A stretch of 64,000 nucleotides of DNA from Minisyncoccota bacterium (GCA_032117235.1 JAULZW010000006.1:2532-66531), one strand, 5' to 3'. Positions 2,923-55,659 are shown, counted from the stretch's first letter. A program made the numbers and translations. Notes: generated by a model from the sequence alone, not told the origin.

Positions 2923-2926
2923 AACT

Positions 2927-8838: not shown

Positions 8839-8843
8839 TGTTA

Positions 8844-8872: not shown

Positions 8873-8902
8873 GAGATGATAATATAGTCCCAAATAATTA
8901 CT

Positions 8903-9592: not shown

Positions 9593-9600
9593 AAGTGTTA

Positions 9601-9629
9601 TTGTACAGATAGGGGAAATGGGGTAGAAT
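9601..9629 (+). promoter_or_regulatory. Conserved promoter cassette, copy 2 (TTGTAC-N17-TAGAAT)
   Basis: TTGTAC at 9601-9606, spacer AGATAGGGGAAATGGGG, TAGAAT at 9624-9629. The -10 element overlaps the first ATG of the downstream ORF, which suggests a leaderless transcript starting near the ATG at 9637. Confidence 0.5.
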
Positions 9630-9636
9630 GAATATT

Positions 9637-10281: not shown

Positions 10282-10317
10282 GTTTGATATTCTGCTAAAG
10301 TTAATGATTTAGCTATA

Positions 10318-10761
10318 TTAAGTCTCTTTCGTTTTCATAGATAACATAAATAAAAGAATAGATAAAATAATAAACACATAATTCCCTATACCTCCTGGGG
10401 CGACACCTGTGAGGGTAAGGGGTTTGAAAAATCCAAGTATAAGTCTGAGACTATATTCAGTAAAGACAAACAGATACATAAGGGGGATAAGAGCTTTGTA
10501 GCGAATTGTGATGATGAGAAACACTATTCCAAGCAGTAGTTGAGAAATTCCCCATAATCCAAACATAAAAATAACCGTATTAGCACTTTCTACAGAATAG
10601 GTATCGAGTGGAATAGTGGCTATACTTTGTGCTCCACCATCAGGGGCTAATATATGAATTAGACTTCGGACTATAGTTATAAAGATGATAATATAAAAAG
10701 TATAGAGAGCAATAGGATGTCCAGTATAGGTGTTATTTATTTGTTTTGGGAAAATATGCAT
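10318..10761 (-). CDS. Hypothetical polytopic membrane protein
   Basis: 147 aa with about four hydrophobic helices and no recognisable motif. Confidence 0.4.
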   Translation of the reverse strand: MHIFPKQINNTYTGHPIALYTFYIIIFITIVRSLIHILAPDGGAQSIATIPLDTYSVESANTVIFMFGLWGISQLLLGIVFLIITIRYKALIPLMYLFVFTEYSLRLILGFFKPLTLTGVAPGGIGNYVFIILSILLFMLSMKTKET

Positions 10762-14224: not shown

Positions 14225-16183
14225 ATGAAACTTATAAATAAAATTAATAGACTAATTGGAGTGGCTTTTGTTTTTTATGTATGTCTGCCTTTTGTAGCTC
14301 AAGCTAATAGCTTAAGCTTTCCTAATGGAATTTTATTAAAATCTACTAATAATCCAAAGGTTTATTATATAGAAAATGGTAAAAAAAGACCAATTGAGTC
14401 ACCCAATATGCTGAAGTCTCAGTTTAGATGGGATGATTTAGTAGTGAGCACTCCTGTAGAATTAGATTCTATACCAATTGGGGAGGAGATGACATATAGA
14501 GATGGGTCTTTATTATCCAACCGTGGAGCAGTATATGTAATTTCAGATGGTGCGCGCAGACCAGTAGAGTCAGCAAATACATTTTTACAAAAAGGCTATA
14601 AATGGAGTAATGTAATAGCAGTTAGTGATGCTGAGTTGGCCCCTCATCCACAAGGAGCTATGTTGGTGGCTAGTGAAAAACATCCAAATGGTAGTTTATT
14701 GGTAAGACCGGGAGGTGAGGTTTATGTGATTAAAAATGGGCAGAGAAGATATATTCCAAGTCCACTTATATTTCAAGCAAGATATCGTTGGGAGTCTCTG
14801 ATTGATGTCTCAGAGTTATATCTGAATACGTATCCACAAGGAGCTAATGAATTTTATCCCGATGGGTTGCTAATATCTAGTGCCACGGGAGTATTTATGA
14901 TGCAGAATAATGTAAGACAGCCTATTACTTCTCCTGCAGTTTTTGAGAGCTATGGCCTTAATTGGGGACAGGTGAGACGGGCTACAGATTTTGAATTATC
15001 TATTATCCCAGAATCTGGAGCTTTTAATAGGGTGAAACAATATGAAGGAGGCTCTATTATTGGAGCTTCTAGTGGTCCTGTATATCGTGTGGCTAATGAT
15101 GGAAGTTTGCAATATATTTCCAGTCCTAAAATTTTTGCAAGTCAAGGATATAGTTGGGATTCCGTACTAAGATTACCAGACAGTGTTGTAGATAAATATA
15201 CAAAAGCAGGAAGAGTTGGATTTGGTAATGGAACTTTAATTTCTTATAATGGAGGAGTTTATTGGATTGAAAATGGATTAAAAAGACCAGTACCAAGTCC
15301 CGCAATATTTAATGCCAGAGGATTTAGATGGAATAATGTAACTGCGGTTTCGGAGGATGAATTTAATGCCAATGCTATGGGGCAGGCTTTATCTGATATC
15401 CAATCTGCTAGTATAGATGGGTATATCATTCCAGCTACTAGCGGTAGAACTGCTCGAGAACAGCACTTAGCTCGAGATTGTAATGAAACAAGTGCTGATC
15501 ATTATGGACGAGCTTTAACTTCAGCTTCAGCACAAAATGGATTATTAACTACTGGAGGAGCCTTTGCTTTAACTTGTCCAGCAGGAAGTCTTAATTCAAG
15601 TTATGCTCCATTTAGTGTTGATGAAGAGAAATATTATATTACTATGCGTTGGAATTATGTAAGATGGTATGAGGCTACTAGTACTTTGACTCAGAATATT
15701 TCTGTTACTTCGGATAGAATTTTACTAACATCAGTAGCTGATTTTCCTAATACTGGTTGGGTTATAATTAATGGAGAGATTATTGCCTATAGTGGAAAGG
15801 ATGGTAATAGTTTAATAGTATCTCAGCGAGGTGTAGATAGTCCAGCTGTGGCAGCAAGTCCACGAGCTCATAATTCAGGAAGTACAGTACAAGAAGTATA
15901 TGAATATAGGTCAGATACTTGGCGCGGTAGAACTCGTACAGCTGAAATTTCAAACACATCTCAATCTAAAAACTGGCATCGGGGAAGAAAAGTTTTAGTA
16001 ACCAATCCATCCAATGGTAGAATGTTGGTAGCATCTATTATGGAATCAGGACCTGCTATATTTACAAATCGTGTGTCCGGGCTGTCTCCAGAAGCTATGT
16101 TAGAATTAGGTATATCTACTGACTCTAATTTAGAGTATGGGTTCTTAATTGATCAATCAATACCAGTTGGACCATTACAATAA
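14225..16183 (+). CDS. Secreted repeat protein (about six copies of a 65-70-aa module) with a C-terminal RlpA-like double-psi beta-barrel domain
   Basis: Signal peptide present. Repeats follow the pattern 'DGSLL...VYxIxNGxKRPIxSPxxFxxxGYxWxxV'. The C-terminal 'KVLVTNPSNGRMLVASIMESGPAIFTNRVSGLSPEAMLELG' resembles an RlpA/DPBB domain. Confidence 0.55.
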   Translation: MKLINKINRLIGVAFVFYVCLPFVAQANSLSFPNGILLKSTNNPKVYYIENGKKRPIESPNMLKSQFRWDDLVVSTPVELDSIPIGEEMTYRDGSLLSNRGAVYVISDGARRPVESANTFLQKGYKWSNVIAVSDAELAPHPQGAMLVASEKHPNGSLLVRPGGEVYVIKNGQRRYIPSPLIFQARYRWESLIDVSELYLNTYPQGANEFYPDGLLISSATGVFMMQNNVRQPITSPAVFESYGLNWGQVRRATDFELSIIPESGAFNRVKQYEGGSIIGASSGPVYRVANDGSLQYISSPKIFASQGYSWDSVLRLPDSVVDKYTKAGRVGFGNGTLISYNGGVYWIENGLKRPVPSPAIFNARGFRWNNVTAVSEDEFNANAMGQALSDIQSASIDGYIIPATSGRTAREQHLARDCNETSADHYGRALTSASAQNGLLTTGGAFALTCPAGSLNSSYAPFSVDEEKYYITMRWNYVRWYEATSTLTQNISVTSDRILLTSVADFPNTGWVIINGEIIAYSGKDGNSLIVSQRGVDSPAVAASPRAHNSGSTVQEVYEYRSDTWRGRTRTAEISNTSQSKNWHRGRKVLVTNPSNGRMLVASIMESGPAIFTNRVSGLSPEAMLELGISTDSNLEYGFLIDQSIPVGPLQ

Positions 16184-17778
16184 TGAGACAAAAAAATATT
16201 TTTTTTATTTGCCTAATAGCATTGTTATTTATAGGGTATAATCCTATAATTAGTTTTGCTAGTACTCCTAATATACAAGCTCGTAATACTTGGGCAACAG
16301 ATAGTGATAATAATTTTACCAATAATATTTGGCCACCTAATGTCAATAATACTTTTCAAGTAAAGCGAATTCTAATTCATGATACAGCCATACCTAGTTT
16401 TAATAGTGATTCTCTAGATTCTAGGCAAATGACGAGATCTATTTTTATTATGCATGCCAGAGATAATGGTTGGGGAGATATTGGGTATAATTATCTTATT
16501 GCTCGGGACGGTACAGTTTATCAGGGAAGAATGGGACAAAATGGAGTAAGAGGTGCTCATCTTTATGTTAATCGAACAGGAGATAATTTTAATTATCAAA
16601 GTGTCGGTATCGCTTTATTAGGTCAATATGGTAGTGGTTATTCAACAGCACCAGAAGCTATGAAACAATCTTTAGCTAAATTATCTGGATGGCTTAGCTC
16701 AGTAAACAGTGTTTCTCCGACTGATTTTGTAAATGAGCCAATTTGGAATTTTTATACCAAGGGATATACCTCTACTTATAACGGATTTAGAGTTTCTGAC
16801 CATGGTGAGATTGAAGCTGGAAATGGAGATACTAATATGGTAGATATGTCTTGGCTTAGAAATAGAGCTCAAGAATGGAAACAATATTATGACAACTCAG
16901 TTTATCGTACAGAAAATGGAAGGATTTATAATATTCAAAACGGTATAAAAACTCCTACAGGTAATATTGGTGGTAAAACTATAATCAATATTAGTTCAAC
17001 AGAAATTAATTTGTTCCCAGATACTACCGATATTAGAACTTTTCCTGACGGATCATTATTAAGAACAGATACTGGAGTTGGATATTTGGAAAATGGAAGT
17101 ATTAGACCTATTATAAATCCAGATATTTTTAATTCTAGATTTAATTGGAAGGATGTAATAGATATTACAAGAGCAGAGTGGAACTCTTATCCATTAGCTT
17201 CAGCTCTAACTTTTAGAGAGGGTATGTTGGTTAGGGAGAGGAGTAATTCAGATGTATATGTAATTAGTAATCAGCAAAGAAGACATATTCCGTCTCCAGT
17301 TACATTTGAGAATTTGGGTTATCAATGGATTAATATAACTACTATTGCAGATGGGACTTTAGATATTTCTCATCCAAAGGGAGTTCCAATGCAATCTAGT
17401 CCATATCCTGATGGAACATTATTGGTGAATAGAGATAATCCTACCGGGATTGAGTTGTTAGAAAATGGTAAAAGAAGACCAATTCCAAGCCCTGAAGTAT
17501 TTGATACTCAATATAATTATAAAGATCTAGTTCGTGTATCGGGAAGTGAATGGAATTCTTATCCACAAGGATCTGCTGTATATTTTCGGGATGGAGTTAT
17601 TCTGAGAGCATCAGGCAGAGGAGAGGTATATATAATGTCTAATGGTAAAAAAAGATATGTCACTTCACCTTTTGTTTTTGAAAGATTAGGATATAAATGG
17701 AATAATATAAAAGTAGTATCTTCAGCTGGTTTGGATAGTGTTCCTTCGGGTAGTCCAATCACAGAAGATATGTTATAA
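16183..17778 (+). CDS. N-acetylmuramoyl-L-alanine amidase (amidase_2 / PGRP domain) fused to the same repeat module
   Basis: Signal peptide present. 'IHDTA...FIMHARDNGWGDIGYNYLIARDGTVYQGR...GAHLYVNRTGDN...SVGIALLGQY' matches the amidase_2/PGRP pattern. It is followed by five or six copies of the 65-70-aa repeat. Confidence 0.7.
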   Translation: MRQKNIFFICLIALLFIGYNPIISFASTPNIQARNTWATDSDNNFTNNIWPPNVNNTFQVKRILIHDTAIPSFNSDSLDSRQMTRSIFIMHARDNGWGDIGYNYLIARDGTVYQGRMGQNGVRGAHLYVNRTGDNFNYQSVGIALLGQYGSGYSTAPEAMKQSLAKLSGWLSSVNSVSPTDFVNEPIWNFYTKGYTSTYNGFRVSDHGEIEAGNGDTNMVDMSWLRNRAQEWKQYYDNSVYRTENGRIYNIQNGIKTPTGNIGGKTIINISSTEINLFPDTTDIRTFPDGSLLRTDTGVGYLENGSIRPIINPDIFNSRFNWKDVIDITRAEWNSYPLASALTFREGMLVRERSNSDVYVISNQQRRHIPSPVTFENLGYQWINITTIADGTLDISHPKGVPMQSSPYPDGTLLVNRDNPTGIELLENGKRRPIPSPEVFDTQYNYKDLVRVSGSEWNSYPQGSAVYFRDGVILRASGRGEVYIMSNGKKRYVTSPFVFERLGYKWNNIKVVSSAGLDSVPSGSPITEDML

Positions 17779-20068: not shown

Positions 20069-21193
20069 ATGAAACCTTTAAGTGGTAGATTATTATATAT
20101 AAATTTAGTTCTTGCTATAATTTGGGATACTATTGGGTTTTTTTTATTTATTTTAGGTTTAATCCCTGGGGCACAACCAATCACAATTACAGCATCTTTA
20201 GTTATTGATGCAACTGCATTTTTTACTGATTTAATATTTTGTATATTATATCAGGGTTATGTCAAAATATATAATGCTAATTTTAAGCTATATCAACTGA
20301 AAAGAATTAGGGAAATGATGAGATTATCCAAGAAAAATAGTGGTACATCTAATAATCCTATAACTAAGAATTTAGCTCGTCAAACTCAAAAAATAAATCA
20401 ATATATGCTGGATAATTTTTCTAATTATATAATAGGTTTTACTGTAAAAAAAATTCAATATTCAATCTTGACATCAGTAGTAGAAATAATTCCTTGGATC
20501 GGTGATTTTTCCCCATCTTGGACTATTAAGGCTAATTTGCATCTAAGAGAGCATCGTAAAATGGCTAGAGAATTAAAAATAAGAAATACAAAATTTGAAA
20601 AATCTTTAGCGAAGTGGCGAGGCTCCTTAAAAATTGGAGGCGTCAGAAAATTTATGTCCCCAAAAAATAAGAATACATCAGTTAAAGAGACAAACTCTAA
20701 TAATATCAGAACATTTAAAAGACGTGTACCAAGTGAGGTGGGACAATCTCCACAGCCAAAAAAAGATATGAATTTAGATGTTAAAAAGTCAGTCGCTAAT
20801 AATATTAGACCATTTAGAAGTCGCTTACCAGTCGAGAATGCTCAACCTGTACAGGCACAAAATAATAATAAATTAGCCAACATACAATCAACAGCTAACA
20901 ATGTTGCTTCTATCAGTAGACAGCTAGTTGGTTCTATACCACAACAGTCTTTAAAGGATGAAGATGATGAATTACAATACAGAAATCAACCTATTAATGA
21001 TATAAAGTCTATAAAAAAACAAGTATTTAGTGATATATCCAAACCCGTATCAGCTAAAAAAGATAATATTTTACCCAATATTAAAAGTGTAAATAATGAA
21101 AAATTAGGCTCTAACAATATTAGACAATTCTCAAGAAGTGCACAGAGTCAAGTAAATAGTGATAAAATACTAGAAACATTAATCAAAAAATAA
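20069..21193 (+). CDS. Hypothetical membrane protein with an internally repetitive C-terminal half
   Basis: N-terminal TM helices. The C-terminal half has four degenerate repeats of 'NNIR(T/P/Q)F(K/R/S)R..P..V'. Confidence 0.4.
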   Translation: MKPLSGRLLYINLVLAIIWDTIGFFLFILGLIPGAQPITITASLVIDATAFFTDLIFCILYQGYVKIYNANFKLYQLKRIREMMRLSKKNSGTSNNPITKNLARQTQKINQYMLDNFSNYIIGFTVKKIQYSILTSVVEIIPWIGDFSPSWTIKANLHLREHRKMARELKIRNTKFEKSLAKWRGSLKIGGVRKFMSPKNKNTSVKETNSNNIRTFKRRVPSEVGQSPQPKKDMNLDVKKSVANNIRPFRSRLPVENAQPVQAQNNNKLANIQSTANNVASISRQLVGSIPQQSLKDEDDELQYRNQPINDIKSIKKQVFSDISKPVSAKKDNILPNIKSVNNEKLGSNNIRQFSRSAQSQVNSDKILETLIKK

Positions 21194-21246
21194 ATACTAT
21201 TCTAAAACTTTAAAATATGATATAATTTACAATATGTATTAAATAT

Positions 21247-22467
21247 ATGAAATATAGAAATATTATTAAAATAATTATCTTAACCATAATTATAGGCTTG
21301 TTGGATACAGGCTCTCTCTTAGCTCAGACTATAGATAATAATGCCACCACTAATTCAACTACTCCCAATTTAATCAGTTCTATTAATAATGATCCCAAGA
21401 CTCAGGAAGAAGCTAATAGGTTAATTGACTCTTTAATTAATAAAAGTTTTGCTGATAGCTATTATACAGATAAATCATCAATAGGTGAGATAAAATTAGT
21501 AATAAAAAATAAATATTTATTCACTAAACAGAAGATAGATTTTTCTACCGTGAACTATCATATAGATAAAAACTTTAAATTTGAGGGAGCGGAATACATT
21601 TGGAAAATTAAAAAAGGAGATAAGATTGTAATGGAGTTGAAAGACATCAATAAATCTAGCTTTTTCTATAATTTTACAGAATCAGGGACTTATCAGATAG
21701 AGGTGAGTGTTAATTCAGCTGGAGTTGTGAAAACAGGTAGCATTAGTATAGATATTTATAATAAATTATCTCTAGATTACAGACCACTTAATCCTGGTAA
21801 AGGAGATATAATTACAACAGCTACAGAATTACCAGTATCCCAATATGCAATAGAATGGAAAGTAGATGGAGAAACCAAAGAGACAAATAACAATAAGATA
21901 ACATTTACAGAAAATAAAGGATATAAACAAAACTATTTTATAGAAGCTATCGCTCGAGATAAGCTGAGTGGATATACTAAATATTATGGTAATACCACTA
22001 TCAATATTCAAGAACCAGAAATAAGAATATCTTTGGTAAATAACAAAAATAATGCTCCAATTGACTTTAATGAAGAAATTAATATTAATGAGCCTATTCA
22101 ACTATTAATCTCTAGTGATGTGTTGAACTCTAGTCAAGATTCAAAATTAGCATATACATATAGAATTAATGACAAATTACAAGATGGTAGTGGAAACTCT
22201 GTAACATTAGATATTGATCCTAATCAATCATATAAAATAGATATAATTTCTAGAGATACTAGTGAAAAAGATGCTAATGCAATAAAATCCTTTATTATCA
22301 ATAAAGATAAAATATCAACTCCAGTAGATGCTAATTTAGCCAAAGTGAGTAGATTAGATTATTTCAAAAATGATAGATATTTGGGAATAGGACTATTATC
22401 CATAATTCTAGTAATGATATTAGTAATGTCTAATCATAGCTCACTGAATAAGAAAATTGAGAAATAG
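21247..22467 (+). CDS. Hypothetical secreted protein with a C-terminal membrane anchor
   Basis: Signal peptide, Asn/Thr-rich, C-terminal TM 'LGIGLLSIILVMILVM'. Confidence 0.4.
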   Translation: MKYRNIIKIIILTIIIGLLDTGSLLAQTIDNNATTNSTTPNLISSINNDPKTQEEANRLIDSLINKSFADSYYTDKSSIGEIKLVIKNKYLFTKQKIDFSTVNYHIDKNFKFEGAEYIWKIKKGDKIVMELKDINKSSFFYNFTESGTYQIEVSVNSAGVVKTGSISIDIYNKLSLDYRPLNPGKGDIITTATELPVSQYAIEWKVDGETKETNNNKITFTENKGYKQNYFIEAIARDKLSGYTKYYGNTTINIQEPEIRISLVNNKNNAPIDFNEEININEPIQLLISSDVLNSSQDSKLAYTYRINDKLQDGSGNSVTLDIDPNQSYKIDIISRDTSEKDANAIKSFIINKDKISTPVDANLAKVSRLDYFKNDRYLGIGLLSIILVMILVMSNHSSLNKKIEK

Positions 22468-22771
22468 TATTGTGGATAACTTAAGTAAGAAGCAAAAATT
22501 TATTATTTTATTAGTTGGAGGTGGGATAATAATTGTAGGTGCATTTATTTGGTCTATGGTCCTTAATTTAAGTCAAATGTCAATTTTAAATCCAGTTCCA
22601 GAATTAAGTTTCCCAAAAGAAATCTCAGAAATAATAGAAAAAAATAATTCTTCATCAGAATTACAAAATATAACTGAAATTTTAGAAAAAGATAAAAATA
22701 AAAGTGTAGATTTAGATGAAAATAATAAGGCTAATACAGAATTAAATTTAGACTCAGATACAAAACAATAA
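22457..22771 (+). CDS. Small hypothetical membrane protein
   Basis: 104 aa with one TM helix. Coding status is uncertain. Confidence 0.3.
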   Translation: MRNSIVDNLSKKQKFIILLVGGGIIIVGAFIWSMVLNLSQMSILNPVPELSFPKEISEIIEKNNSSSELQNITEILEKDKNKSVDLDENNKANTELNLDSDTKQ

Positions 22772-22778: not shown

Positions 22779-23219
22779 TTATTCAGAGATATCCTGAATT
22801 ACAGTTTTTTCCCCATAAGTATCTAAAGTCCAAGCTACCTCTTCTACTCTAGATTGGCTATACTCATTCTTCTCCCGCATATAAGAGGCTTTCTTTTTTT
22901 GAGTAGTAATTTTGATAACTGATCTTGTAATATCAACATCACGAGACCATAAAAATAAAGTCGGTTTTATAATATAAATTATAATATTTGTAAGTAAAAT
23001 ATCAAAGTTCTGGCCATTTATTTTAACAAATGCAAAAGCAAAGGTTGCCCCTATCACAGGTAATATACTAATAAAAAACACTCCTAGATTAGGCTTGAAG
23101 TACCATAAAAATCCACCAATCACGACTCCAATAGCTAAAACAGCAAATTGTCTAATAGTAATAGGTCCAAATATTTTATCTTCAGAATCAACAAATTGAG
23201 GGATATTATATTGTTGCAT
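22779..23219 (-). CDS. PrgI/VirB3-like small membrane protein (tentative)
   Basis: 146 aa. The N-terminal 'KIFGPITIRQFAVLAIGVVIGGFLWY' followed by a second TM helix resembles the PrgI-family 'fGltlrQ' pattern. It is the last gene of the operon. Confidence 0.4.
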   Translation of the reverse strand: MQQYNIPQFVDSEDKIFGPITIRQFAVLAIGVVIGGFLWYFKPNLGVFFISILPVIGATFAFAFVKINGQNFDILLTNIIIYIIKPTLFLWSRDVDITRSVIKITTQKKKASYMREKNEYSQSRVEEVAWTLDTYGEKTVIQDISE

Positions 23220-23225
23220 ATTAGT

Positions 23226-24113
23226 TTATTCAGGTTGCTTTAAATTTACTAAATTTTTAGGAATAGGAGTTGGCTTGGCAGTTAGTACAATTGGAGCTGA
23301 AGACTTAGTCGGAACAGGCATACGAGGCACCGGTTGAGGGCTAAATTGAGGTATATTATTAGCAATACCACTATGAGTAGTGGATTGGGTAGGTTTAGGA
23401 TTTGTATTATTAACTATATGTGTTGGTAAGGGAGTATTAATAGCCTCCTTACGAACAGGCTCAGTATTAACAGCAGGTATATTATTATTATCTAAATCTT
23501 GATAAAGTACAGTAGTATCTGTTTGTAAATAATCATAAAAAGATAATACTTTTCTTAAAGCTTCTTTTTCAGCTGGACTCAAAGTTTGGACTACAGTATC
23601 TCCACTAATAAATTTAGATTTAGCAAAATTATCATTAGAGTTAATCCCAGTAGCTCTATTATAATATTCAATCCAATTAGCAATATTAGGTTTAGCTTGA
23701 GGATTGTCTTGAGATAAATGTAGGGGAACAGTCCCAATTTGCTGATTGTTTTTCTCAACTAAACTCAATAAATCTTTTCGCATCATTTCTTTGATTAACT
23801 CTATTGGATAAATAGAATATTTACTCTCAATTCTGGCTCTAAGATCTCGCTCAGAAGGCCAAATAGGATTCAAAGACTCAATTAGGTTAAAAGATATAAT
23901 GTTAAATAATAATTCGTATTTTAAATTCGGAATAGCCGTCACATAAAGTTGGAAAATAATTTTAGATAATTCGCGATAAGCATCTGGATTGGATGTTTTT
24001 ATATTATTATCAATAAGAGATTTTTCTAATTTTTCAGCAAATTCAAAAGCCCCGAGAACATTGTCATAAGTTATCAGTGATTTGGCTTCTTCTTGTATTT
24101 CAGTGAGTGTCAT
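23226..24113 (-). CDS. Hypothetical protein with a Pro-rich C-terminus
   Basis: 295 aa with no TM helix. The C-terminus is 'PQPVPRMPVPTKSSAPIVLTAKPTPIPKNL'. It lies in the operon with the VirB6-like gene. Confidence 0.4.
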   Translation of the reverse strand: MTLTEIQEEAKSLITYDNVLGAFEFAEKLEKSLIDNNIKTSNPDAYRELSKIIFQLYVTAIPNLKYELLFNIISFNLIESLNPIWPSERDLRARIESKYSIYPIELIKEMMRKDLLSLVEKNNQQIGTVPLHLSQDNPQAKPNIANWIEYYNRATGINSNDNFAKSKFISGDTVVQTLSPAEKEALRKVLSFYDYLQTDTTVLYQDLDNNNIPAVNTEPVRKEAINTPLPTHIVNNTNPKPTQSTTHSGIANNIPQFSPQPVPRMPVPTKSSAPIVLTAKPTPIPKNLVNLKQPE

Positions 24114-24138
24114 GGGGGGATATTTTATTTTTATATTA

Positions 24139-26214
24139 TTAAGGAGATGAAGTTATTCTATTTTTACCACCTAGTCCTTTTAGTGCAGCCTTCAATTTGT
24201 TCTCACCAATTTCTGGCACTGATAATTCTGGGTAAGTGGCACGAGCTACAGCTGGATCTGATTGATATAAAGATAAATAGTTATTTATTTCTTTAATAAT
24301 ATTGGTTCTTATTCCTCCATATTTATTCCATGATTTTGGATCTTCTAAAGTGTCGAGTGAAGATTCATTTGCTATAATCGGAGCAAATTTCTTAATATCA
24401 AAGTTGTCTTCATATATTTCTCTTCCTGATGAATCTGTAACTTTACTTTTTGTATTAAATATAGAGTTATTTTTTGCAACCATATCTCCTGCTCCGACTA
24501 ATCCAGCTTTTGCTGCTTTAGCAGAGGGTGAGTAATTTGTATTTTTTACATCTCGTTCTGCTAATCCAGCGGCAAAATTACCAACCCCCTTATCATTTAA
24601 TATATTAGCCTGACGACTTCTAAAGCTATTTGTTGTTTGAGTACCTATAACTTTACCATTAGCATCTCGGATAAGGTTTCCAGCACTATCTTTTTGCTCA
24701 AAATTATCATTAATGAATGCATCAAGTTGCTTAGCATCAGTATCATAACCATTAGATGGGTCTGAATATTTACTATAATCACCTTGTGTAAATATTTTAT
24801 TCCATCCTTTTAATTCAGATATTCTTGTTGCTAATGCCATGGCAGTGAATTTATCTCCATCATCAAGAGCTTTCTTCATATCTTGAGCTAATTTATCAAC
24901 ATTAAATTCATCTTTGACTTCTGTAGCAGCAGCTCCTTGTAGTGTAGCAGCCATTTTTTTATAGCGTTCATTTCCTTTCTCTTCTAACTTACCTTCATTA
25001 AACAAACGAATTGCTTTTTCTTTCTCAAAATCTTCTAATTGTTGTTTTTTCCCTTCAGCTGAAAACCCTTGAAATCTTCCCACGAATCCAATCCCTTCTT
25101 TTTGTTGTTCTATCAAATCTCTTTTTTTACTTTCATATTTTTGATTGGCATTTTGCAATGCTTTAATTCCAGTTACTCCACCCACAGCTCCAGCTGTATT
25201 AGTGAGCCCACCAGCTAACTTATCAGTATTCTTAATACCACCCTGCACTAATTCTTTTCCCTTACCAAACATTTTTCCAGTACCAACTCCTCCAGCTCCG
25301 ACATAAGCTCCTAGTCCTAATGTGGCAACAGTACCAGCTACTCCCACAGCATTTTTTAGTATAGTAGGAGCAGATTGAGCAGCCTTGGTGGCTGTAGAAT
25401 TGGCCAAGAATAATAATCCTATCACTAAGACATAATTTATTAGATTACCATTATTCATCAAATTATCCCCACCAGTCGTAGCAGTATTAGCAGAAATTCC
25501 AGTGCTCATCAAAGAAAATGCTAAATATAAGAAAAACATTAAAGTTGGCCCAGTAACTAAGGCTTCTTGTAATTGTTTTTTCCAATCATCACTAATAGAT
25601 TTTAGTCCTGGTATTAAAGTAGCCATAAAAGCCAAAGGAGCTAACATTATTACAAACCACAAGGTTACTATCCTCATAGCTAGAATAAGTGCAGTCCATA
25701 ATAGTACAAATACTAAAATAGCAATTACAACAATAGTAAATATATTTAAAATAATATTCTCTGTATTAGATTCTGAACCTGATTCTGCTATTCTGGATGC
25801 AGTTCCAATAATGTTTGCCATATTAGGTCCAAAGGAATTATAAAAAGATATCATTATAATTTGGCTAATATCTATCAAGAATCCTACAATAGCTTTACTG
25901 AAATTTATAAATAAAGCTACAAATATAAAATTAGGCAACATTCTTTTAGCTGTATAATTATCTAAGGATCCAACATTAAGTACAGTTGAGATTGCAATTA
26001 ATAATAAAACTAAAGCAAAGAATAAATTAGAGAAGTTTCTAGTAATTTCCCAGCCAGCATTAACTCCTTCACTAAAGAAATTCTGATAGGACATAACATT
26101 TGTTAATAATGGGACAACAGCATTGTTTAATAACATTAAAAAAAAGTTTTTAAACATACCAACTATGTTTGCCACTAAAAATCCACCTGCTTTATCTAAA
26201 AACCAATTAACCAT
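24139..26214 (-). CDS. VirB6/TrbL-like polytopic membrane protein with a long Gly-rich hydrophilic C-terminal tail
   Basis: 691 aa with 6-7 TM helices. 'VIMLAPLAFMATLIPGLKSISDDWKKQLQEAL' fits the TrbL/VirB6 core pattern (aPl..a..l.p.t....W.kql). The tail runs 'GAGGVGTGKMFGKGKE...'. Confidence 0.5.
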   Translation of the reverse strand: MVNWFLDKAGGFLVANIVGMFKNFFLMLLNNAVVPLLTNVMSYQNFFSEGVNAGWEITRNFSNLFFALVLLLIAISTVLNVGSLDNYTAKRMLPNFIFVALFINFSKAIVGFLIDISQIIMISFYNSFGPNMANIIGTASRIAESGSESNTENIILNIFTIVVIAILVFVLLWTALILAMRIVTLWFVIMLAPLAFMATLIPGLKSISDDWKKQLQEALVTGPTLMFFLYLAFSLMSTGISANTATTGGDNLMNNGNLINYVLVIGLLFLANSTATKAAQSAPTILKNAVGVAGTVATLGLGAYVGAGGVGTGKMFGKGKELVQGGIKNTDKLAGGLTNTAGAVGGVTGIKALQNANQKYESKKRDLIEQQKEGIGFVGRFQGFSAEGKKQQLEDFEKEKAIRLFNEGKLEEKGNERYKKMAATLQGAAATEVKDEFNVDKLAQDMKKALDDGDKFTAMALATRISELKGWNKIFTQGDYSKYSDPSNGYDTDAKQLDAFINDNFEQKDSAGNLIRDANGKVIGTQTTNSFRSRQANILNDKGVGNFAAGLAERDVKNTNYSPSAKAAKAGLVGAGDMVAKNNSIFNTKSKVTDSSGREIYEDNFDIKKFAPIIANESSLDTLEDPKSWNKYGGIRTNIIKEINNYLSLYQSDPAVARATYPELSVPEIGENKLKAALKGLGGKNRITSSP

Positions 26215-26220
26215 AAAATT

Positions 26221-27921
26221 TTAAGGTATTAAACCATTAACAGCTCCACTTACTGCATTGTTTACAGCTCCAGTAGCATTTGTTATGGCTCCACTTACAT
26301 TGCCTATTCCTGGAATTTCCATATTGCCAACTATTCCGTTTAATAATCCAGAAATCTGTTTGTTTAATTCACAAGATAAACCACTAGTTACATTTATTAC
26401 TAATGAATCTTGAAGAGATTTAAAAAATCTATCTGGGTCAGGTATTGCTCCAGTTCCAGTTAATCCGGCTTGCAACTGATTAGCAAATCCTTGTGGATTC
26501 TTCAGAGAATTAATAGGATCAGATTTGGCATTATTAAGTACAGAGGACAAGGTATTATTTACTCCATATAACCCTTGGGTTAGGACTGGTTTTAGTGTGC
26601 CGTCTAGAATATTTTGAGGTATAGCTTCAAAACAATTATCCCCAGAAGCTAAAATAGCTTGATCTATAGTAGCTTCATTAACTTTTTGGGATAGGGAAGA
26701 TATATTAGATCCTGGAGTTTGGATTACTTTAGTAAATGGATTTTTATTATTATCCTGTGTTTTAGAGAAGTATCCATCTCCCATATAGACTACCTCGTCG
26801 TTTAATTGTGTTTCTGCCTTTTTAGATTTTTCATCAGCCATAAAACCAATTGTAGTTGCAATGTCATTAGCATTATTATTTGTTTTAAGTCCTTCAATTA
26901 TACAGTCTAAGGTATCTGCCTCTTCTACTTTGATATTCCCACATTTTTCAGTAAATGTTTCTTTAGGTAATTGACTCTCGGTTGGGTCTTGTAAGTCTTT
27001 AAAATATTCTTCCAACTCCTGATTTTTCTTTAAGGAAAAATTAGCATAATCTCCATAAGTCTCTATAGCATCATTTGACACTACTCCAGTTTCAGGATCT
27101 AGAGCTCCGAATTGTATCCCTAGTTTTCTCAAATCATCTAAGTTTTGAGGCATTAGATTATCATTACTAATTTGAGTTCTTAGAGTATCACTTACTGTAG
27201 CAATAGTTTTAGCCTTTTGCTGTGCTGCCAGAGGAGCATCAACTAATTCCTTTTGTTGATATAGAGCTAAATCATCTACTACAACTACTGGTAATGGAGT
27301 AGGTGAGGTGATATTAACTGGCAAAGGTAAAGGATTGAATAAGTCTACTGGTAGCGGAGCTATCAATCTTCTGGTATCAATTACTTCATTTATATTATTA
27401 TAATTACATTCCTCAAATATTTTTTCTAATCCTATTAAATCATTGAAGTTACCAGTAAATTGTCCGATAGGATCTGCTACTACTCCAGTTAATGTACCAT
27501 CTAATTTAAGTCCAAATGGTGAATTTAAATTCCCTAAAAAATCCCCAGCTAAATTACTAAGATTACTGGTAAAGGAGCCTCCCAATATTCCTCCAGTAAT
27601 AGAATTTGCAAAGTCAGATCCAAGTCCATTTGGTCCAGATCCACAACCAACATCTCCTTTATATGGACTTTCCGGAGCTTCTATAGGCTGTGGTTTTACA
27701 CAGGTATATGTCGCGTTTCCAACTTTATCCTTAGACTCTATTGGTAGTAATCCACGATATTGCTTCTGGCAAACTTCATCTTGGCTACATTTTTTATCCC
27801 CACATGTTTGACCGTATAAATTATCGGCATAAGTTATATTGGGTAAAATAAATATAAATAAAGATAAAAATAATATTTGGAATAATTTTATGTTTATTTT
27901 ATTTTTAATAATATAATTCAT
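26221..27921 (-). CDS. Secreted Cys- and Gly-rich protein (possible VirB5/TrbJ-like or surface adhesin component)
   Basis: 566 aa. Signal peptide, an N-terminal Cys cluster, and Gly-rich segments 'GCGSGPNGLGSDFANSITGGILGG'. It sits immediately upstream of the VirB6-like gene with a 6-nt gap. Confidence 0.4.
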   Translation of the reverse strand: MNYIIKNKINIKLFQILFLSLFIFILPNITYADNLYGQTCGDKKCSQDEVCQKQYRGLLPIESKDKVGNATYTCVKPQPIEAPESPYKGDVGCGSGPNGLGSDFANSITGGILGGSFTSNLSNLAGDFLGNLNSPFGLKLDGTLTGVVADPIGQFTGNFNDLIGLEKIFEECNYNNINEVIDTRRLIAPLPVDLFNPLPLPVNITSPTPLPVVVVDDLALYQQKELVDAPLAAQQKAKTIATVSDTLRTQISNDNLMPQNLDDLRKLGIQFGALDPETGVVSNDAIETYGDYANFSLKKNQELEEYFKDLQDPTESQLPKETFTEKCGNIKVEEADTLDCIIEGLKTNNNANDIATTIGFMADEKSKKAETQLNDEVVYMGDGYFSKTQDNNKNPFTKVIQTPGSNISSLSQKVNEATIDQAILASGDNCFEAIPQNILDGTLKPVLTQGLYGVNNTLSSVLNNAKSDPINSLKNPQGFANQLQAGLTGTGAIPDPDRFFKSLQDSLVINVTSGLSCELNKQISGLLNGIVGNMEIPGIGNVSGAITNATGAVNNAVSGAVNGLIP

Positions 27922-27924
27922 ATA

Positions 27925-28677
27925 TTATGGTTTTTTATAAATAAGATTATATTTTTGTCTAAGTGTTTGTAATTCTTGTTTGATTACTAAGTCTAGTCTT
28001 TGAAGTAAAGATACAGTTAATTTGTTGTTAATGTCTAATTTTAAAGGGTCAGAACTAGCATTTAATAAAATCAATAAAAAGCTATTTTGTACTTGGGCTA
28101 TTCTTATATAAGCCTTATGTAATTGAAGAGCATCTGGAGGAACTTCTATTATGAATAAAGATAAATATAAACTCTTGTTTTTATTAAGTAGGGATTGTAT
28201 ATTTTGAGTTTTTCCACTCAAAGCATCTTCAGACAATTGATTTATATTTGGTTGAATAGAATTCTCTCTGAATACATTGTATAAATTAGTTAGATAATTG
28301 TCAATAGAGTTTTCATTTAATTCTTCAGTTGATAATAAATTTATATTTTTTTCTGGTAATGGAGGTAAATCTATATTATCAATGCCTATGTTTTTGGTAT
28401 TATTTTGGATTTCCTCCACTAATGGCTTATCTGAGATGAGTGAGTTAGTCAATATCTCGGCTCCTATTTTGGTAAAATTAACTTCTTGTTGCTTGCCATC
28501 TTTGGTGGTTTGTAAAATTCTGATTGGAGCAAGTCCTTTATCTATTTCTGATAAATTAGCTGATTGAGACTTGCCAGAGTTTTTTATAATATAAAAAACA
28601 ACAACTAATACTATAACTAATATAATTATAATGCCTATATAAACCAGATTTTGCCTTTTGAAGATAGATTGTAACAT
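27925..28677 (-). CDS. Bitopic membrane protein (VirB8-like topology, unconfirmed)
   Basis: 250 aa with a single N-terminal TM 'LVYIGIIIILVIVLVVVFYII'. It is the first gene of the operon. Confidence 0.35.
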   Translation of the reverse strand: MLQSIFKRQNLVYIGIIIILVIVLVVVFYIIKNSGKSQSANLSEIDKGLAPIRILQTTKDGKQQEVNFTKIGAEILTNSLISDKPLVEEIQNNTKNIGIDNIDLPPLPEKNINLLSTEELNENSIDNYLTNLYNVFRENSIQPNINQLSEDALSGKTQNIQSLLNKNKSLYLSLFIIEVPPDALQLHKAYIRIAQVQNSFLLILLNASSDPLKLDINNKLTVSLLQRLDLVIKQELQTLRQKYNLIYKKP

Positions 28678-28805
28678 TCGATTTATATATATTTTAACCT
28701 ATAAATATTATACTATATTATTGCATTTATAGTCAAACTATCTATTTTGAATTGACAAGCTAAAAATATATGATAATCTAATTAATATAGTATAAAAATA
28801 TAAAT

Positions 28806-36074: not shown

Positions 36075-37052
36075 CTAAAATAAACTTGGTACTTTAATTT
36101 TATTATCTAATCTTTTTTCTGCAATTTTAAAATAATCTTGATCAAGTTCATATCCTATAAATTTTCTTTTTAACTCTATACAAGCCACTCCTGTTGACCC
36201 ACTTCCCATAAAAGGGTCTAAAATAATATGTTCATCGAATGTTATTAGTTTTACTAAATGGTGCATCAATTCAATAGGTTTTAGTGTGGGGTGAAAATTA
36301 AAATCTTCTTTATTTTGTCTTACTTTTGGTACTAAAAAAAATTTATCATATCCATCTTTAAATTCATCAGTTCTTATTATATTTGCTGGAACTCTACCTT
36401 TTTCGTGGGGGTTATGTCCTACTTTACCTTCATTTTCAGCATAAGGTAGTCTTGTATTTTCAAAATTTAATGCTCCAGTACCATATTTAATTATATTTTG
36501 AGCAACATTTAAACCTTTTTCTAAGGGCTTTTGTATTAAAATGATTGGTTCATATGCTGGCTTTAATCCTAATCCTGCCCCATTATATCTTTTACCCAAT
36601 TCTGAAATAGGAGATAATTTATGTTTCTCACCTACTTTATAATTATCAGCACCATTTTTTTTATATCCTTGAACATATTTATATCGTCCAACTTTTTTAC
36701 TTTCAATATTAAGTTCTGAATCTATCAACAAGCCAACATTTCTACTTTTTGGCATTCCATTTAAATAAGACCAAAATAATACATCTTTGATTAAAAAGCC
36801 ACTATCTTCTAAATCAACCATTAACCTATGCATTAATCTAACAGAACTAAAAACCAAACCAAAACCACCTGGTTTAATTTTTTTAAAACTATTATTCCAT
36901 ATTTCTTTACTGGGTAAATCTTTATCCCAATAATTATTTTGGTATGAAATACCATAAGGAGGATCAGTTATTATTGAATCAATATAATTATCCTCTATAT
37001 CTTCTAGTAAATATGAGTTTTTATTATAAATTTGAAACATGTTAAACATCAT
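36075..37052 (-). CDS. DNA methyltransferase (beta-class N6-adenine / N4-cytosine; motif IV precedes motif I)
   Basis: 'IITDPPYGISY' (motif IV) is followed near the C-terminus by 'ILDPFMGSGSTGVAC' (motif I). Confidence 0.85.
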   Translation of the reverse strand: MMFNMFQIYNKNSYLLEDIEDNYIDSIITDPPYGISYQNNYWDKDLPSKEIWNNSFKKIKPGGFGLVFSSVRLMHRLMVDLEDSGFLIKDVLFWSYLNGMPKSRNVGLLIDSELNIESKKVGRYKYVQGYKKNGADNYKVGEKHKLSPISELGKRYNGAGLGLKPAYEPIILIQKPLEKGLNVAQNIIKYGTGALNFENTRLPYAENEGKVGHNPHEKGRVPANIIRTDEFKDGYDKFFLVPKVRQNKEDFNFHPTLKPIELMHHLVKLITFDEHIILDPFMGSGSTGVACIELKRKFIGYELDQDYFKIAEKRLDNKIKVPSLF

Positions 37053-37662
37053 TAATGCTCAAAATATCATCTATTGTTAAATATTTTGATATATTTCTTT
37101 TATAATTTATTAATAATTTATATACAAAATCTTTTTTCTTATCTGGTGGAACAATAACATTAAATTTATACTCTTGAATCATTTTTTCTATTCCAATATT
37201 TTGGGTTGAGCGAGTACTTGTATTGGCAACAGCTTTTACTCTTTCCAGTAAATATTTCCCTAAAGCTACATGTTGCCCATATATAATAAATTGTAAATCT
37301 ACAGCTCCTTTCCATACTCCAACAGCTGTAAACAATCTTTTATCACTAAAAGCTATAGCTTTTTCTTCACTTGTATCATTCCATGTTCCACCCAATCTTT
37401 TAGAAAAAACACTACATTGTTTTACCTCAAGAAATTTACCAGTTTTTGAGCTCTTACCGTCAAAGCCATGTTTATTGAAATTTAACAAATCATATCCTAA
37501 ATAATTACCAACAATAGAATCTCTTATTTCATTTATTGTTGTATCAGTATCATAAGACTTAAATTCATTTTGAAATTTAGTTAATTCTTCTAATGCAAGA
37601 ATTCCTTTCGTTCTAAAGGAATATGGGATTGGTCTATAATCACCTTTTTTAAAAATATTCAT
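37042..37662 (-). CDS. Candidate restriction endonuclease (PD-(D/E)xK-like) partner of the methyltransferase
   Basis: It overlaps the MTase start by 11 nt. 'HGFDGKSSKTGKFLEVKQ' gives a D...E-V-K arrangement. The tracked ORF extends to 37716, but that part overlaps a tRNA-derived repeat, so the Met at 37662 is preferred. Confidence 0.45.
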   Translation of the reverse strand: MNIFKKGDYRPIPYSFRTKGILALEELTKFQNEFKSYDTDTTINEIRDSIVGNYLGYDLLNFNKHGFDGKSSKTGKFLEVKQCSVFSKRLGGTWNDTSEEKAIAFSDKRLFTAVGVWKGAVDLQFIIYGQHVALGKYLLERVKAVANTSTRSTQNIGIEKMIQEYKFNVIVPPDKKKDFVYKLLINYKRNISKYLTIDDILSINDV

Positions 37663-37692
37663 AATATTTTTTAGTATACATAAAACAATTTG

Positions 37693-37711
37693 GCGGAAGT
37701 GAGAGGATTCG
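37693..37711 (-). repeat. 19-nt direct repeat of the tRNA-Ser(TGA) 3' end (att-like)
   Basis: 'gcggaagtgagaggattcg' at 37693-37711 matches 37899-37917. The roughly 190-bp interval between the copies has acceptor-like pairing (GAAGTGA...TCACTTCC), like a degraded tRNA copy. Confidence 0.6.
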
Positions 37712-37899
37712 GTCACAAGTAATTTTCCTGACGGAAAATTCTCGCGACCCCGTCTCGCTGTGTTCGCCTTGTGCTTCGCACAAACTCACACTGGGCTGCG
37801 ACTTTCTCATCCCCACGGGAGCAATGCTATTGCTCTCTGTCACTTCTTCAAATATTATTTTTATCTTTTGGCATAAATACCAAAAGATAAAAATATATG

Positions 37900-37986
37900 C
37901 GGAAGTGAGAGGATTCGAACCTCTGGTAGGGGTAAACCTACAACAGTTTTCAAGACTGCCGCCTTCAACCGCTCAGCCACACTTCC
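37900..37986 (-). tRNA. tRNA-Ser (anticodon TGA), type II
   Basis: Minus-strand read: GGAAGTG acceptor, anticodon loop CTTGAAA, long variable arm, T-arm AGAGG-TTCGAAT-CCTCT, discriminator G. Confidence 0.9.
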
Positions 37987-53511: not shown

Positions 53512-55659
53512 ATGTCTAAAAAAGAGACTATATCTAATACAAAGATTAAAAGTGAAGCCAAGAGAACAATATTAGGGGTTACATTTGTTGCTTTTTCAAT
53601 ACTAAGTTTTTTATCTTTCTTTTCTTCAGCAGGAGTTTTTGGTAACAGTATTAACAATAGCTTTTCTTTTTTATTTGGGTTTGCTAAGTTTATATTGCCA
53701 TTTATATTATTATATATTGGTGTTAAATTATTAGTCAAACCAAAAACAGTTACAAGTTTCTACTATATAAATTTGTTAGCTTTATTAAATTTATTTATAT
53801 TATTTTTAGGTCTGTTACAATTTGTACAATTTGATAATTCTGAACAGTCTTTAGAGAATGCGAAAAATGGTGTCGGAGGAGGTTATATTGGTTATTATAT
53901 AGGAGCATTGATTAAATATGTATTCGGTGAATTTGGTGGTTTTATAGCTATAATAACTGGTATTAGCATCTCTGCTATTATTTTACTTAATAGAGCAATA
54001 CACCTTGATGGTTTGATATCATTGATGAAACCTATATTTTCTAAAGAAACTAAGATAGAGGATGTTCATCAAGATAATAAAGATAATTCCCAAATTAATT
54101 CTAATAGAATTTTCAATCAAGAAGCTAAAGTAGAAGAATTAGGTGATAAGGTAATATCAAATAATAAAGTTATAATCAATAAAATTCCTGAGTGGATGAA
54201 AGAAAATCAGTTTAGTTTGCCCACAGTAGATTTATTAGAAAAGGGAAAACTAGATGATGGTCCTAAAAGTGGAGATACCAAAAAAAGTTCAGAAATTATT
54301 AAGGGTACATTATCTACTTTTGGTATTGAGGTTGAAATGGGTAAAATTGATGTTGGTCCATCTGTTACGCGATTTATGCTTCGGCCATCTAATGGTATAA
54401 AATTATCCAGAATTACTTCATTACAAAATGATTTAGCTCTAGCTATGGCAGCTCAATCAATTAGAATAGAAGCTCCAATTCCAGGAATGTCATATGTCGG
54501 CGTAGAAACTCCTAATGCTAAAAGAGCCACAGTGAGAATGAGAGAAATTATGGAGTCTAAAGAGTTCAATGATAATGAATATCACTTACCACTTGCTTTA
54601 GGTAGAGACGTTATGAATAAAGTTATTGTCTTTCCATTAGAAAAGATGCCACATTTATTAATTGCAGGAGCTACAGGAGCTGGTAAGTCTATGGGACTGA
54701 ATGCTATGATTTTAAGTATGTTATATAAAAACCCACCTTCTAAATTAAAATTTATATTTATTGACCCTAAAAGAGTTGAGTTATCTACATATAATGGTAT
54801 ACCTCATCTTTTAACTCCAGCTATAGTTAGTCCCGAAAAAGCTATGAATGCTCTAAATTGGTGTGTAGGAGAGATGGAAAGACGTTATGAAACTTTAGCA
54901 AAAGCAGGAGCAAGAAATATATTCACATATAATGAAAAGATTATAGATGGAACTTTGAAATCAGAAAATGATCAAGAATTAGAAATTATGCCATTTATTG
55001 TTGTTGTAATAGATGAGCTTGCTGATTTAATGAGTAGTCATAAAAAAGAAGTTGAAGGTTCAATTGTGAGAATAGCTCAGATGGCAAGAGCGGTGGGTAT
55101 ACATCTAATTTTAGCTACGCAAAGACCATCCACAGATGTAATTACGGGTATTATAAAAGCTAATTTACCATCTAGAGTGAGCTTTCAGGTGGCTTCTCAA
55201 ATTGACTCCAGAACTGTACTAGATATGATGGGAGCAGAAAAATTATTAGGTATGGGAGATATGTTGTTTTTAGGTGGTGATTTATCCAAACCTCAGAGAA
55301 TACAAGGTCCTTTTGTTCCGGAGAATGAAGTGAAATCTGTTGTTAAGTGGTTAAAAAGTCAAGGAGAAAACCAATATGACAACTCTATTACGGAGTCAGA
55401 ATCACCTAAACAAATTTATTATGACGGTGGAGTAGATTATGGTAGTGAAGGCACAGACACTTTATTTGAGGAAGCAAAAGACTTAGTGTTACAGAGTGGT
55501 AAGGGTTCAGCATCTCTTTTGCAGAGGAGATTAAAGATAGGGTATGCCAGAGCCGCTAGACTATTAGATGAACTAGAAGCAGCTGGAATTGTTGGGCAGG
55601 CTGAAGGGTCTAAGCCTAGAGATGTATTGATAGAAAAACATAGTATAGATAATGAATAA
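53512..55659 (+). CDS. ftsK: DNA translocase FtsK
   Basis: N-terminal TM helices, Walker A 'GATGAGKS', 'VIDELADLM', and a C-terminal gamma winged-helix domain. Confidence 0.9.
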   Translation: MSKKETISNTKIKSEAKRTILGVTFVAFSILSFLSFFSSAGVFGNSINNSFSFLFGFAKFILPFILLYIGVKLLVKPKTVTSFYYINLLALLNLFILFLGLLQFVQFDNSEQSLENAKNGVGGGYIGYYIGALIKYVFGEFGGFIAIITGISISAIILLNRAIHLDGLISLMKPIFSKETKIEDVHQDNKDNSQINSNRIFNQEAKVEELGDKVISNNKVIINKIPEWMKENQFSLPTVDLLEKGKLDDGPKSGDTKKSSEIIKGTLSTFGIEVEMGKIDVGPSVTRFMLRPSNGIKLSRITSLQNDLALAMAAQSIRIEAPIPGMSYVGVETPNAKRATVRMREIMESKEFNDNEYHLPLALGRDVMNKVIVFPLEKMPHLLIAGATGAGKSMGLNAMILSMLYKNPPSKLKFIFIDPKRVELSTYNGIPHLLTPAIVSPEKAMNALNWCVGEMERRYETLAKAGARNIFTYNEKIIDGTLKSENDQELEIMPFIVVVIDELADLMSSHKKEVEGSIVRIAQMARAVGIHLILATQRPSTDVITGIIKANLPSRVSFQVASQIDSRTVLDMMGAEKLLGMGDMLFLGGDLSKPQRIQGPFVPENEVKSVVKWLKSQGENQYDNSITESESPKQIYYDGGVDYGSEGTDTLFEEAKDLVLQSGKGSASLLQRRLKIGYARAARLLDELEAAGIVGQAEGSKPRDVLIEKHSIDNE

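Follow-up and report, generated by a model that had tools for sequence, protein, structure and literature searches.

How a bacterial chromosome can keep the genes for the membrane proteins of a type IV secretion system (T4SS) without a gene for the VirB4 ATPase beside them is the question raised by a locus in a 64-kb stretch of DNA (hereafter the window, meaning the whole stretch analysed) from a small-genome bacterium of Paceibacteria type. ORF calling placed five minus-strand open reading frames (ORFs), g1 to g5, in one compact co-directional block with gaps of 3, 6, 25 and 6 nt, in agreement with the initial annotation, which had reported five co-directional genes separated by 3–25 nt. The descriptions given there of the five products were also borne out: g1 (27925..28677, 250 aa) has one transmembrane (TM) segment, g2 (26221..27921, 566 aa) has a signal-like N-terminus with 10 Cys and 50 Gly residues, g3 (24139..26214, 691 aa) is polytopic, g4 (23226..24113, 295 aa) is Pro-rich, and g5 (22779..23219, 146 aa) has two TM segments. 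Based on the analysis described below, g1–g5 probably constitute the membrane (translocon) half of a chromosomal, non-conjugative patescibacterial T4SS, and would assemble with TrsD and VirB4 proteins encoded at a distance. The VirB6-like membrane component of this half is g3 and the VirB3-like one is g5, and g1 and g2 are predicted from their sequence features to be extracytoplasmic.

The 146-aa product of g5 had been proposed to be a PrgI/VirB3-like protein, and a hidden Markov model (HMM) search upheld the proposal. It scored 38.0 bits against Pfam PrgI (PF12666; E 2.4e-9, profile positions 2–79 of 91), and because this exceeds the curated cutoff of 27, we assign g5 as a true PrgI/VirB3 protein. 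Hydropathy indicated a two-TM hairpin (segments ~23–43 and 47–65), and the predicted topology consists of a cytoplasmic N-terminus (YNIPQFVDSEDKIFGPITIRQF), the TM hairpin and a basic cytoplasmic tail with the conserved SR.VEE..W.LDTYG. The motif PQF.D.EDKI.GP.T.RQF is common to g5 and the PrgI proteins of VirB4-linked loci, and g5 retains all family-wide motifs of the latter, including those in the cytoplasmic N-terminus and the C-terminal tail. The VirB3/PrgI hairpin anchors the VirB4 ATPase to the membrane in T4SSs. Adjacency or fusion to VirB4, a feature of PrgI that belongs to its context and does not define its sequence, was found for the distant relatives and was absent for g5.

The product of g3, initially assigned to VirB6/TrbL, scored 16.2 bits against Pfam TrbL/VirB6 (PF04610), below the cutoff of 25.9, and gave another weak, below-threshold match to the NCBIfam CD3337/EF1877 mobilome membrane family. 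A search of a 5.8-billion-sequence database revealed 105 homologues at E ≤ 0.001, the few named sources being Parcubacteria, Minisyncoccia, Patescibacteria group, 'bacterium' and Candidatus Elulimicrobium. PF04610 was matched by 9 of 32 g3 family members (best E 2e-4, all sub-threshold) and was the only Pfam family to recur; no transporter family was matched by g3 or its family members in the Pfam and NCBIfam scans. Precomputed PF19590 (TrbL_3) annotations are attached to many g3 homologues (including P0073 and P0104) and also to the 100%-identical P0001, with E at most 1e-5 where marked, whereas PF19590 was never returned for the g3 family by a local Pfam-A hmmscan, with matches up to E 1 included, which apparently reflects a difference between the two Pfam copies. 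The AlphaFold2 (AF2) model of g3, built on a 99-sequence alignment, contained a confident helical TM bundle with a predicted local distance difference test score (pLDDT) of 80–96 for residues ~20–280. When this model was compared with 350,542 PDB chains using Foldseek, the top five matches were all R388 TrwI/VirB6 (probability 0.95–1.0, target TM-score up to 0.52), with weak E-values of 0.03–0.16 and sequence identities of 11–15%. VirB6 emerged from this fold comparison only, as the g3 family profile found no VirB6 among PDB sequences. The recurrent TrbL matches, the PF19590 annotations, the AF2 bundle and the TrwI matches nevertheless converge on VirB6, as initially assigned. In addition, g3 combines the VirB6 fold with at least five TM helices and is clustered with PrgI here, and its distant homologues are clustered with PrgI, TrsD and VirB4. 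The description of g3 as an 'extended' VirB6/TrbL-like polytopic protein is reasonably supported.

The protein has three parts: a helical TM bundle at ~10–280 (about 6–7 hydrophobic helices), a disordered Gly-rich linker at 282–385 (23 Gly in 104 residues) and a helical C-terminal domain of ~300 aa at 390–685, which is confidently folded in the AF2 model. The Gly-rich stretch noted at the outset is thus real, but it is not the long tail it was taken for, since it leads into a folded domain. The quoted segment APLAFMATLIPGLKSISDDWKKQL, thought to belong to the TrbL/VirB6 core, is present in g3 and includes P193, P202 and W211, which are among the nine invariant positions of the 99-member family. 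Basic loops follow TM2 and TM4, and the linker after TM6 is basic as well; by the positive-inside rule both termini are probably inside, and the linker and C-terminal domain would then be cytoplasmic.

Between the VirB6-like and PrgI genes lies g4, whose product has no TM segment and is presumably soluble and cytoplasmic. It consists of a conserved N-terminal helical domain of ~210 aa (with W147, Y151, G156 and L178) followed by a variable Pro-rich tail with an NNIPQF motif, and has a conserved C-terminal 'NLVNL' motif; 17 of its 26 Pro residues are in the last 95 positions. It belongs to no named family, and no sequence in the PDB matched it. Its profile did match the gene directly 3′ of VirB6 in six distant loci (L028, L029, L019, L006, L005 and L020; E 8e-9 to 1e-6), a gene that stands 5′ of PrgI wherever PrgI is present, and in 19 of the 40 loci sampled a g4-like gene was found upstream of VirB4. 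Homologues in the position between VirB6 and PrgI therefore indicate that g4 is a conserved, unnamed soluble T4SS-associated protein.

The remaining two genes, g1 and g2, stand at the 5′ end of the block. The g1 product is predicted to be bitopic, with a short N-terminus, one TM segment (13–31) and a ~215-aa extracytoplasmic domain. Orthologues are present in all loci of the clade described below, and the g1 profile has weak matches in L028, L029 and L022 (E 4e-4 to 2e-2), in each case to the gene that stands second upstream of VirB6; the first two of these loci are VirB4-linked, and the third is cut within its VirB6-like gene. The matched proteins of L028 and L022 carry TSP3 Ca-binding repeats, which fits an extracytoplasmic location. 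There was no Pfam or NCBIfam match for g1, and its family profile found nothing among PDB sequences, including no VirB8-like chain at E up to 1. The bitopic topology would suit a VirB8-like protein (PrgL, TraM or TcpC); this candidate was not supported, having no sequence match in the PDB, and g1 is a conserved accessory component without a named family. As for g2, its signal-like N-terminus and Gly-rich segments are accompanied by a small domain with four invariant Cys residues (C40, C45, C51 and C74), an invariant Pro-rich core at residues ~189–223 (APLPVD.FNPLPLPVN.TSPTPLPVVVVDDLALYQQKE) and a helical domain at ~217–425. It has 73 close homologues, and when 1.84 billion representatives were searched exhaustively with its profile, only 15 clusters were found, so we regard g2 as a predicted secreted protein restricted to the clade. 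No Pfam or NCBIfam family matched it, and a PDB sequence search gave no meaningful match. Its AF2 model was poor (pLDDT 50.7, with only residues 260–410 above 70), and Foldseek comparison of this poor model with the PDB gave no match with a probability above 0.06, to neither TrwJ nor any other VirB5. The candidacy of g2 as a VirB5 analogue (VirB5/TraC/TrwJ) therefore found no support from the sequence profile or from the fold search of that model. In L027 the gene at the position of g2 carries a T4SS_pilin domain (PF18895).

To place the block in its genomic context, loci were gathered by identical-protein lookup and by a scan of GTDB species representatives with peptide patterns taken from 20 closer sequences. 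The clade of the window comprises 14 other species-level genomes (L001, L002/L015, L008–L014, L016–L018, L030 and L031), with g3 proteins 32–85% identical to that of the window. All loci that are long enough share the order aspS-acyltransferase-ytxH-d122 / g1-g2-g3-g4-g5 / u104-u406-u374 (convergent) / shmt-folD, the insertion position between identical housekeeping genes is fixed in 15 genomes (window included), and all five ORFs are intact in the 14 others; this synteny means that the block is not a chance arrangement. The source names, i.e., Paceibacteria, Parcubacteria and Minisyncoccia, agree with the patescibacterial host that had been suggested. Mean identity within the clade is 78% for g5, compared with 78% for AspRS and 73% for FolD, and 62% for the TM core of g3; none of g3, g4 and g5 shows accelerated divergence relative to the housekeeping neighbours. 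Given the intact ORFs and these identities of g5 and the g3 core, the block is under strong purifying selection and is not decaying. Several metagenome-assembled genomes bearing the module are titled Saccharibacteria, Gammaproteobacteria, Ignavibacteria or Bdellovibrionales (L008, L014, L021, L023, L024, L028 and L029), and the titles of L008 and L014 look wrong because both share the Paceibacteria-type synteny of the window.

In distant Patescibacteria the corresponding genes continue into the motor of the machine. There the order is a VirB6-like gene, one or two genes, PrgI, a TrsD of ~225 aa that resembles the TraC N-terminus, and a VirB4 of ~630 aa, the last confirmed by P-loop_TraG, AAA_10, DUF87 and CagE_TrbE_VirB domains. 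The full VirB6-x-PrgI-TrsD-VirB4 order was found in L019, L023 and L025–L029, while the contigs of L007 and L005 end at TrsD; the canonical loci of L007 and L027 adjoin dnaA. A Paceibacteria genome has been tabulated with the same order, VirB6 (531), VirB3 (533), TrsD (534), VirB4 (535) and VirB2 (537) (PMC12102498). A giant protein of 2,800–2,965 aa is encoded directly upstream of the VirB6-like gene, or one gene away, in L005, L006, L019 and L020 (about 250–10000). In L028 an Rce1-like CAAX protease (9682–10362) lies two genes downstream of VirB4 and may be a pilin-processing enzyme.

The window has no such continuation, and the initial remark that it holds no ATPase was confirmed in two ways. 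Its ORFs of at least 500 aa encode TopA, a penicillin-binding protein (PBP), a subtilase, FtsK, RecJ, an amidase-domain protein, a secreted repeat protein, g2 and g3, none of them VirB4 or VirD4; patescibacterial VirB4 and TrsD HMMs run against the six-frame translation of the window found nothing (best E ~0.5) and no pseudogene trace. The FtsK gene (53512..55659) was considered as a type IV coupling protein (T4CP) and rejected on its full FtsK architecture of 4TM, alpha, motor and gamma parts. A 652-aa ORF (14225..16183) was likewise rejected as a divergent VirB4, being a secreted repeat protein without a Walker A motif. This protein, with internal repeats of ~55–60 aa and no Pfam family, is followed on the plus strand by a 531-aa secreted N-acetylmuramoyl-L-alanine amidase (Amidase_2), the stop and start codons overlapping (14225–17778 together); the two genes are kept in L002 and L031 too and could form a wall-remodelling pair. 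With the L027 pilin-domain protein (PF18895) as a single-sequence query, a search of limited sensitivity, no VirB2-like pilin was detected in the window (best E ~1.2); the same query matched L019, L022 and L023 and, more weakly, L028 and L029.

Where trsD-virB4 lie in other lineages, the clade has three convergent plus-strand genes, u374, u406 and u104 (20069–22771), 3′ of the operon. They are syntenic with it wherever a clade locus reaches this region, and no homologue of them was found in canonical VirB4-linked loci. The u104 product is bitopic with an acidic tail, and the u406 product combines a signal peptide and a C-terminal TM anchor with a weak Y_Y_Y/Ig-like match. The u374 product (20069..21193, 374 aa) has hydrophobic segments within its N-terminal ~60 residues, which we read as two putative TM segments, and a long basic tail with three NNIR.F motifs; it is an uncertain candidate for a protein associated with the module. 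These motifs belong to a wider pattern, [NY]NI[PR].F, of which the 69 ORFs of the window (20,022 aa) hold five copies against 0.03 expected by shuffling: YNIPQF at the N-terminus of g5, NNIPQF in the tail of g4, and NNIRTF, NNIRPF and NNIRQF in the tail of u374. The copies are largely conserved in the orthologues, all lie within predicted cytoplasmic regions, and they may represent a shared docking peptide.

Taking these observations together, we consider that the module most likely works with a VirB4 encoded elsewhere, since the ORFs are intact in 15 genomes, g5 is conserved like AspRS with all motifs of VirB4-linked PrgI, and published surveys point the same way. VirB4 was found in 2,417 of 3,035 patescibacterial assemblies, and 769 of 1,649 VirB3 homologues and 176 of 480 VirB6 homologues were not within 20 coding sequences of virB4 (PMC12102498). 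Of the candidate T4SS-related apparatus first proposed, the T4SS identity thus holds, and the absence of the ATPase from the window is most likely due to a split locus, not to an apparatus that has none. Several points weigh against a membrane half with a distant motor. Neither VirB4 nor TrsD was found in the 64-kb window or, where sequence is available, within ±10 kb in the 14 relatives. Among 80 metagenome VirB4 loci, sampled for closeness to the VirB4 query and not to this clade, PrgI-TrsD stood immediately upstream of VirB4 in all 67 with enough upstream sequence, so that the split in the clade is a real departure and the separation is atypical; an orphan TrsD-VirB4 half was not found among these 80 loci, a sample biased toward query-like VirB4s. 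Moreover, the HMM scores behind the VirB6 assignment are sub-threshold and its Foldseek E-values are weak (0.03–0.16), the operon status is taken from gene spacing alone, and the roles of g1 and g2 follow only from position and predicted location.

The same absence could be read in other ways. It is rather unlikely that the clade has lost TrsD and VirB4 altogether and keeps VirB6-g4-PrgI with g2 (perhaps also u104, u406 and u374) as an ATPase-free conduit or attachment device. The lack of both genes in the window and its 14 relatives would fit such a loss, as would the fact that the adjacency seen in 67 of 67 loci is broken throughout the clade and that the break coincides with clade-specific genes (g2 with its 15 clusters; u104, u406 and u374 without canonical homologues); about 20% of patescibacterial assemblies are also without a detected VirB4 (PMC12102498). 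However, the sole known role of VirB3/PrgI is that of membrane partner of VirB4, and yet g5 is conserved like an aminoacyl-tRNA synthetase. No VirB4-less T4SS-derived machine is known, VirB4 having been called the only universal T4SS component (PMC12102498), and the ~20–64 kb seen per genome says little about genomes of 0.6–1.2 Mb. Slightly more doubtful is the specific claim that at least 15 species-level genomes are without VirB4 and TrsD, with VirB6-g4-PrgI, g2 and NNI[PR].F partners such as u374 forming an envelope conduit or attachment device that is independent of an ATPase or differently powered. If it were true, the module would be the first known case of a T4SS-derived machine that lacks VirB4, and the indispensability of VirB4 for every such machine would need revision. 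We give a smaller chance to a complete canonical T4SS elsewhere in the genome, e.g., near dnaA, with g1–g5 as a diverged second membrane module that serves the same motor or a specialised substrate or host. Canonical loci of other Paceibacteria-type genomes do adjoin dnaA/dnaN (L007, L027; PMC12102498), a region outside the window, and many VirB3 and VirB6 homologues are distant from virB4 (PMC12102498). On the other side, the genome scan gave one g3-type locus per assembly, with peptide patterns that would miss a diverged paralogue; g3, g4 and g5 are not diverging faster than their housekeeping neighbours, and nothing directly supports a duplication.

It is very improbable that the block is what remains of an integrated conjugative element or that an unrelated membrane transporter has been mistaken for a T4SS, although the Pfam and NCBIfam scores of g3 are below curated thresholds and the NCBIfam family is a 'mobilome' membrane protein. 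The PrgI match is above its threshold, VirB6 is the best natural structural match of g3, and no transporter family was matched. The flanking housekeeping genes are identical across genomes whose g3 proteins are only 32–85% identical, and the ORFs are intact. The window is ordinary chromosome, with genes for UppS, YceG, TsaD, SHMT, FolD, AspRS, TopA, MraW, PBP, a Mur ligase, GAPDH, FtsK, enolase, RecJ, RNase P RNA and four tRNAs; the GC content of the operon is 0.317 against 0.318 for the window, and no integrase, relaxase or T4CP was found among its genes. Based on the fixed flanks, the native GC content and the lack of these three genes, the block is therefore chromosomal and vertically inherited, and a mobile-element origin was rejected on synteny (fixed position in 15 genomes) and composition.

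The preferred explanation, a translocon half with a motor encoded elsewhere, can be put as a sequence of events and contacts. In most Patescibacteria the trsD-virB4 and pilin genes directly follow the membrane genes; in the Paceibacteria-type clade, an old rearrangement would have severed prgI from the genes directly behind it. The module would then be expressed as a separate five-gene operon and assemble with a TrsD/VirB4 motor from elsewhere in the chromosome. In the assembled machine, g3 would form a membrane platform or channel, with its linker and C-terminal domain on the cytoplasmic side, within reach of soluble g4, the cytoplasmic partner encoded between the VirB6-like and PrgI genes. 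The g5 hairpin would recruit the distantly encoded VirB4 hexamer, and the bitopic g1 and secreted g2 would extend the structure through the wall toward a host cell. By analogy with Saccharibacteria, the role may be host-dependent growth through macromolecules that pass into or out of the host cell. A T4SS cluster is essential for the epibiotic growth of S. epibionticum (PMC10633639), and the functions proposed for such machines are effector or protein export and uptake of host macromolecules (PMC10633639, PMC11665869, PMC12857230, bioRxiv 10.64898/2026.06.21.733656).

The block is separated from a divergent gene upstream by 128 nt, and a convergent gene downstream leaves 7 nt between its end and the g5 stop codon. 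A promoter-like site, TTGACT-18-TATAAT (28707..28736, minus strand), lies in the 128-nt region 5′ of g1; it matches 11 of 12 consensus positions and is the top-scoring sigma70-like match of the scanned region. As a candidate operon promoter it is only suggestive, because the 43 promoter-like sites counted there are not above the shuffle expectation of 38.8. We infer that g1–g5 would be co-transcribed from this site.

Two further arrangements were observed in the window. On the minus strand at 36075–37716, the gene for an N6/N4 DNA methylase (325 aa) shares 11 nt with a GTG-start ORF of 224 aa that has no Pfam family; beside tRNA-Ser (37899–37986), the two may be a small restriction-modification pair. 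On the plus strand, the class A RNase P RNA (60386–60717, 125.9 bits) ends 8 nt inside a TTG-start sugar transferase ORF (60710–62158), and the true start codon of the latter is probably further downstream.

As a kind, the system is not new, since patescibacterial T4SSs were described in 2023 (PMC10633639) and 2025 (PMC12102498). Particular to this locus are the clade-wide ancient break of the PrgI-TrsD-VirB4 linkage, the clade-specific secreted protein upstream of VirB6, the recognition of g4 as a conserved component and the NNI[PR].F peptide in g5, g4 and u374. In the only species examined so far, the patescibacterial T4SS is required for epibiotic growth (PMC10633639). A clade that carries the membrane module as its own putative transcription unit separates the machine naturally into two halves, one the 'translocon' and the other 'motor plus pilin'. 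Across distant Patescibacteria, g4 adds a conserved and previously unnamed, presumably cytoplasmic component of the T4SS between VirB6 and VirB3. The position directly upstream of VirB6 holds lineage-specific secreted proteins, such as g2 and the L027 pilin-domain protein, which are plausible determinants of host range, and the NNI[PR].F peptide is a testable docking motif.

When the locus is compared with known systems, the closest likeness is to the patescibacterial chromosomal T4SS, with which it shares VirB6-like, g4-like and PrgI/VirB3 proteins in equal order, a chromosomal location without a relaxase and a monoderm small-genome host. It differs in that trsD-virB4 follow prgI in those loci and are missing locally in the whole clade, in that VirB2-like pilin genes were not detected locally with the single-sequence query and the locus is not near dnaA, and in that a 566-aa clade-restricted secreted protein is encoded directly upstream of VirB6. 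The patescibacterial chromosomal T4SS in turn derives from Gram-positive conjugation machinery of the mating-pair formation FATA class (MPF-FATA), in which prgH-prgI-prgJ of pCF10 are the VirB6-VirB3-VirB4 equivalents. With pCF10, g1–g5 have in common the PrgI family, a polytopic VirB6-like protein encoded just upstream and a monoderm architecture without outer-membrane core components; in contrast, they are not on a plasmid or conjugative element, g4 intervenes between the VirB6-like and PrgI-like genes, and the operon is without relaxase, T4CP, VirB4 and cell-wall hydrolase. In the comparison with the R388 structures of TrwI/VirB6, TrwM/VirB3 and TrwK/VirB4 (PDB 7o3v, 8rtd and 8rt9), g3, at 11–15% identity, carries a ~400-aa linker and domain that are absent from TrwI, and a VirB5-like partner was not detected here, the g2 model matching neither TrwJ nor other VirB5 proteins. 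The fusion of a VirB6 core to a large hydrophilic C-proximal domain is shared with the 'extended VirB6' proteins of, e.g., Rickettsia, and the proposed division of the system is shared with the dispersed T4SS islands, also found in Rickettsia, whose genes are split over several chromosomal sites (PMC12857230, PMC12102498).

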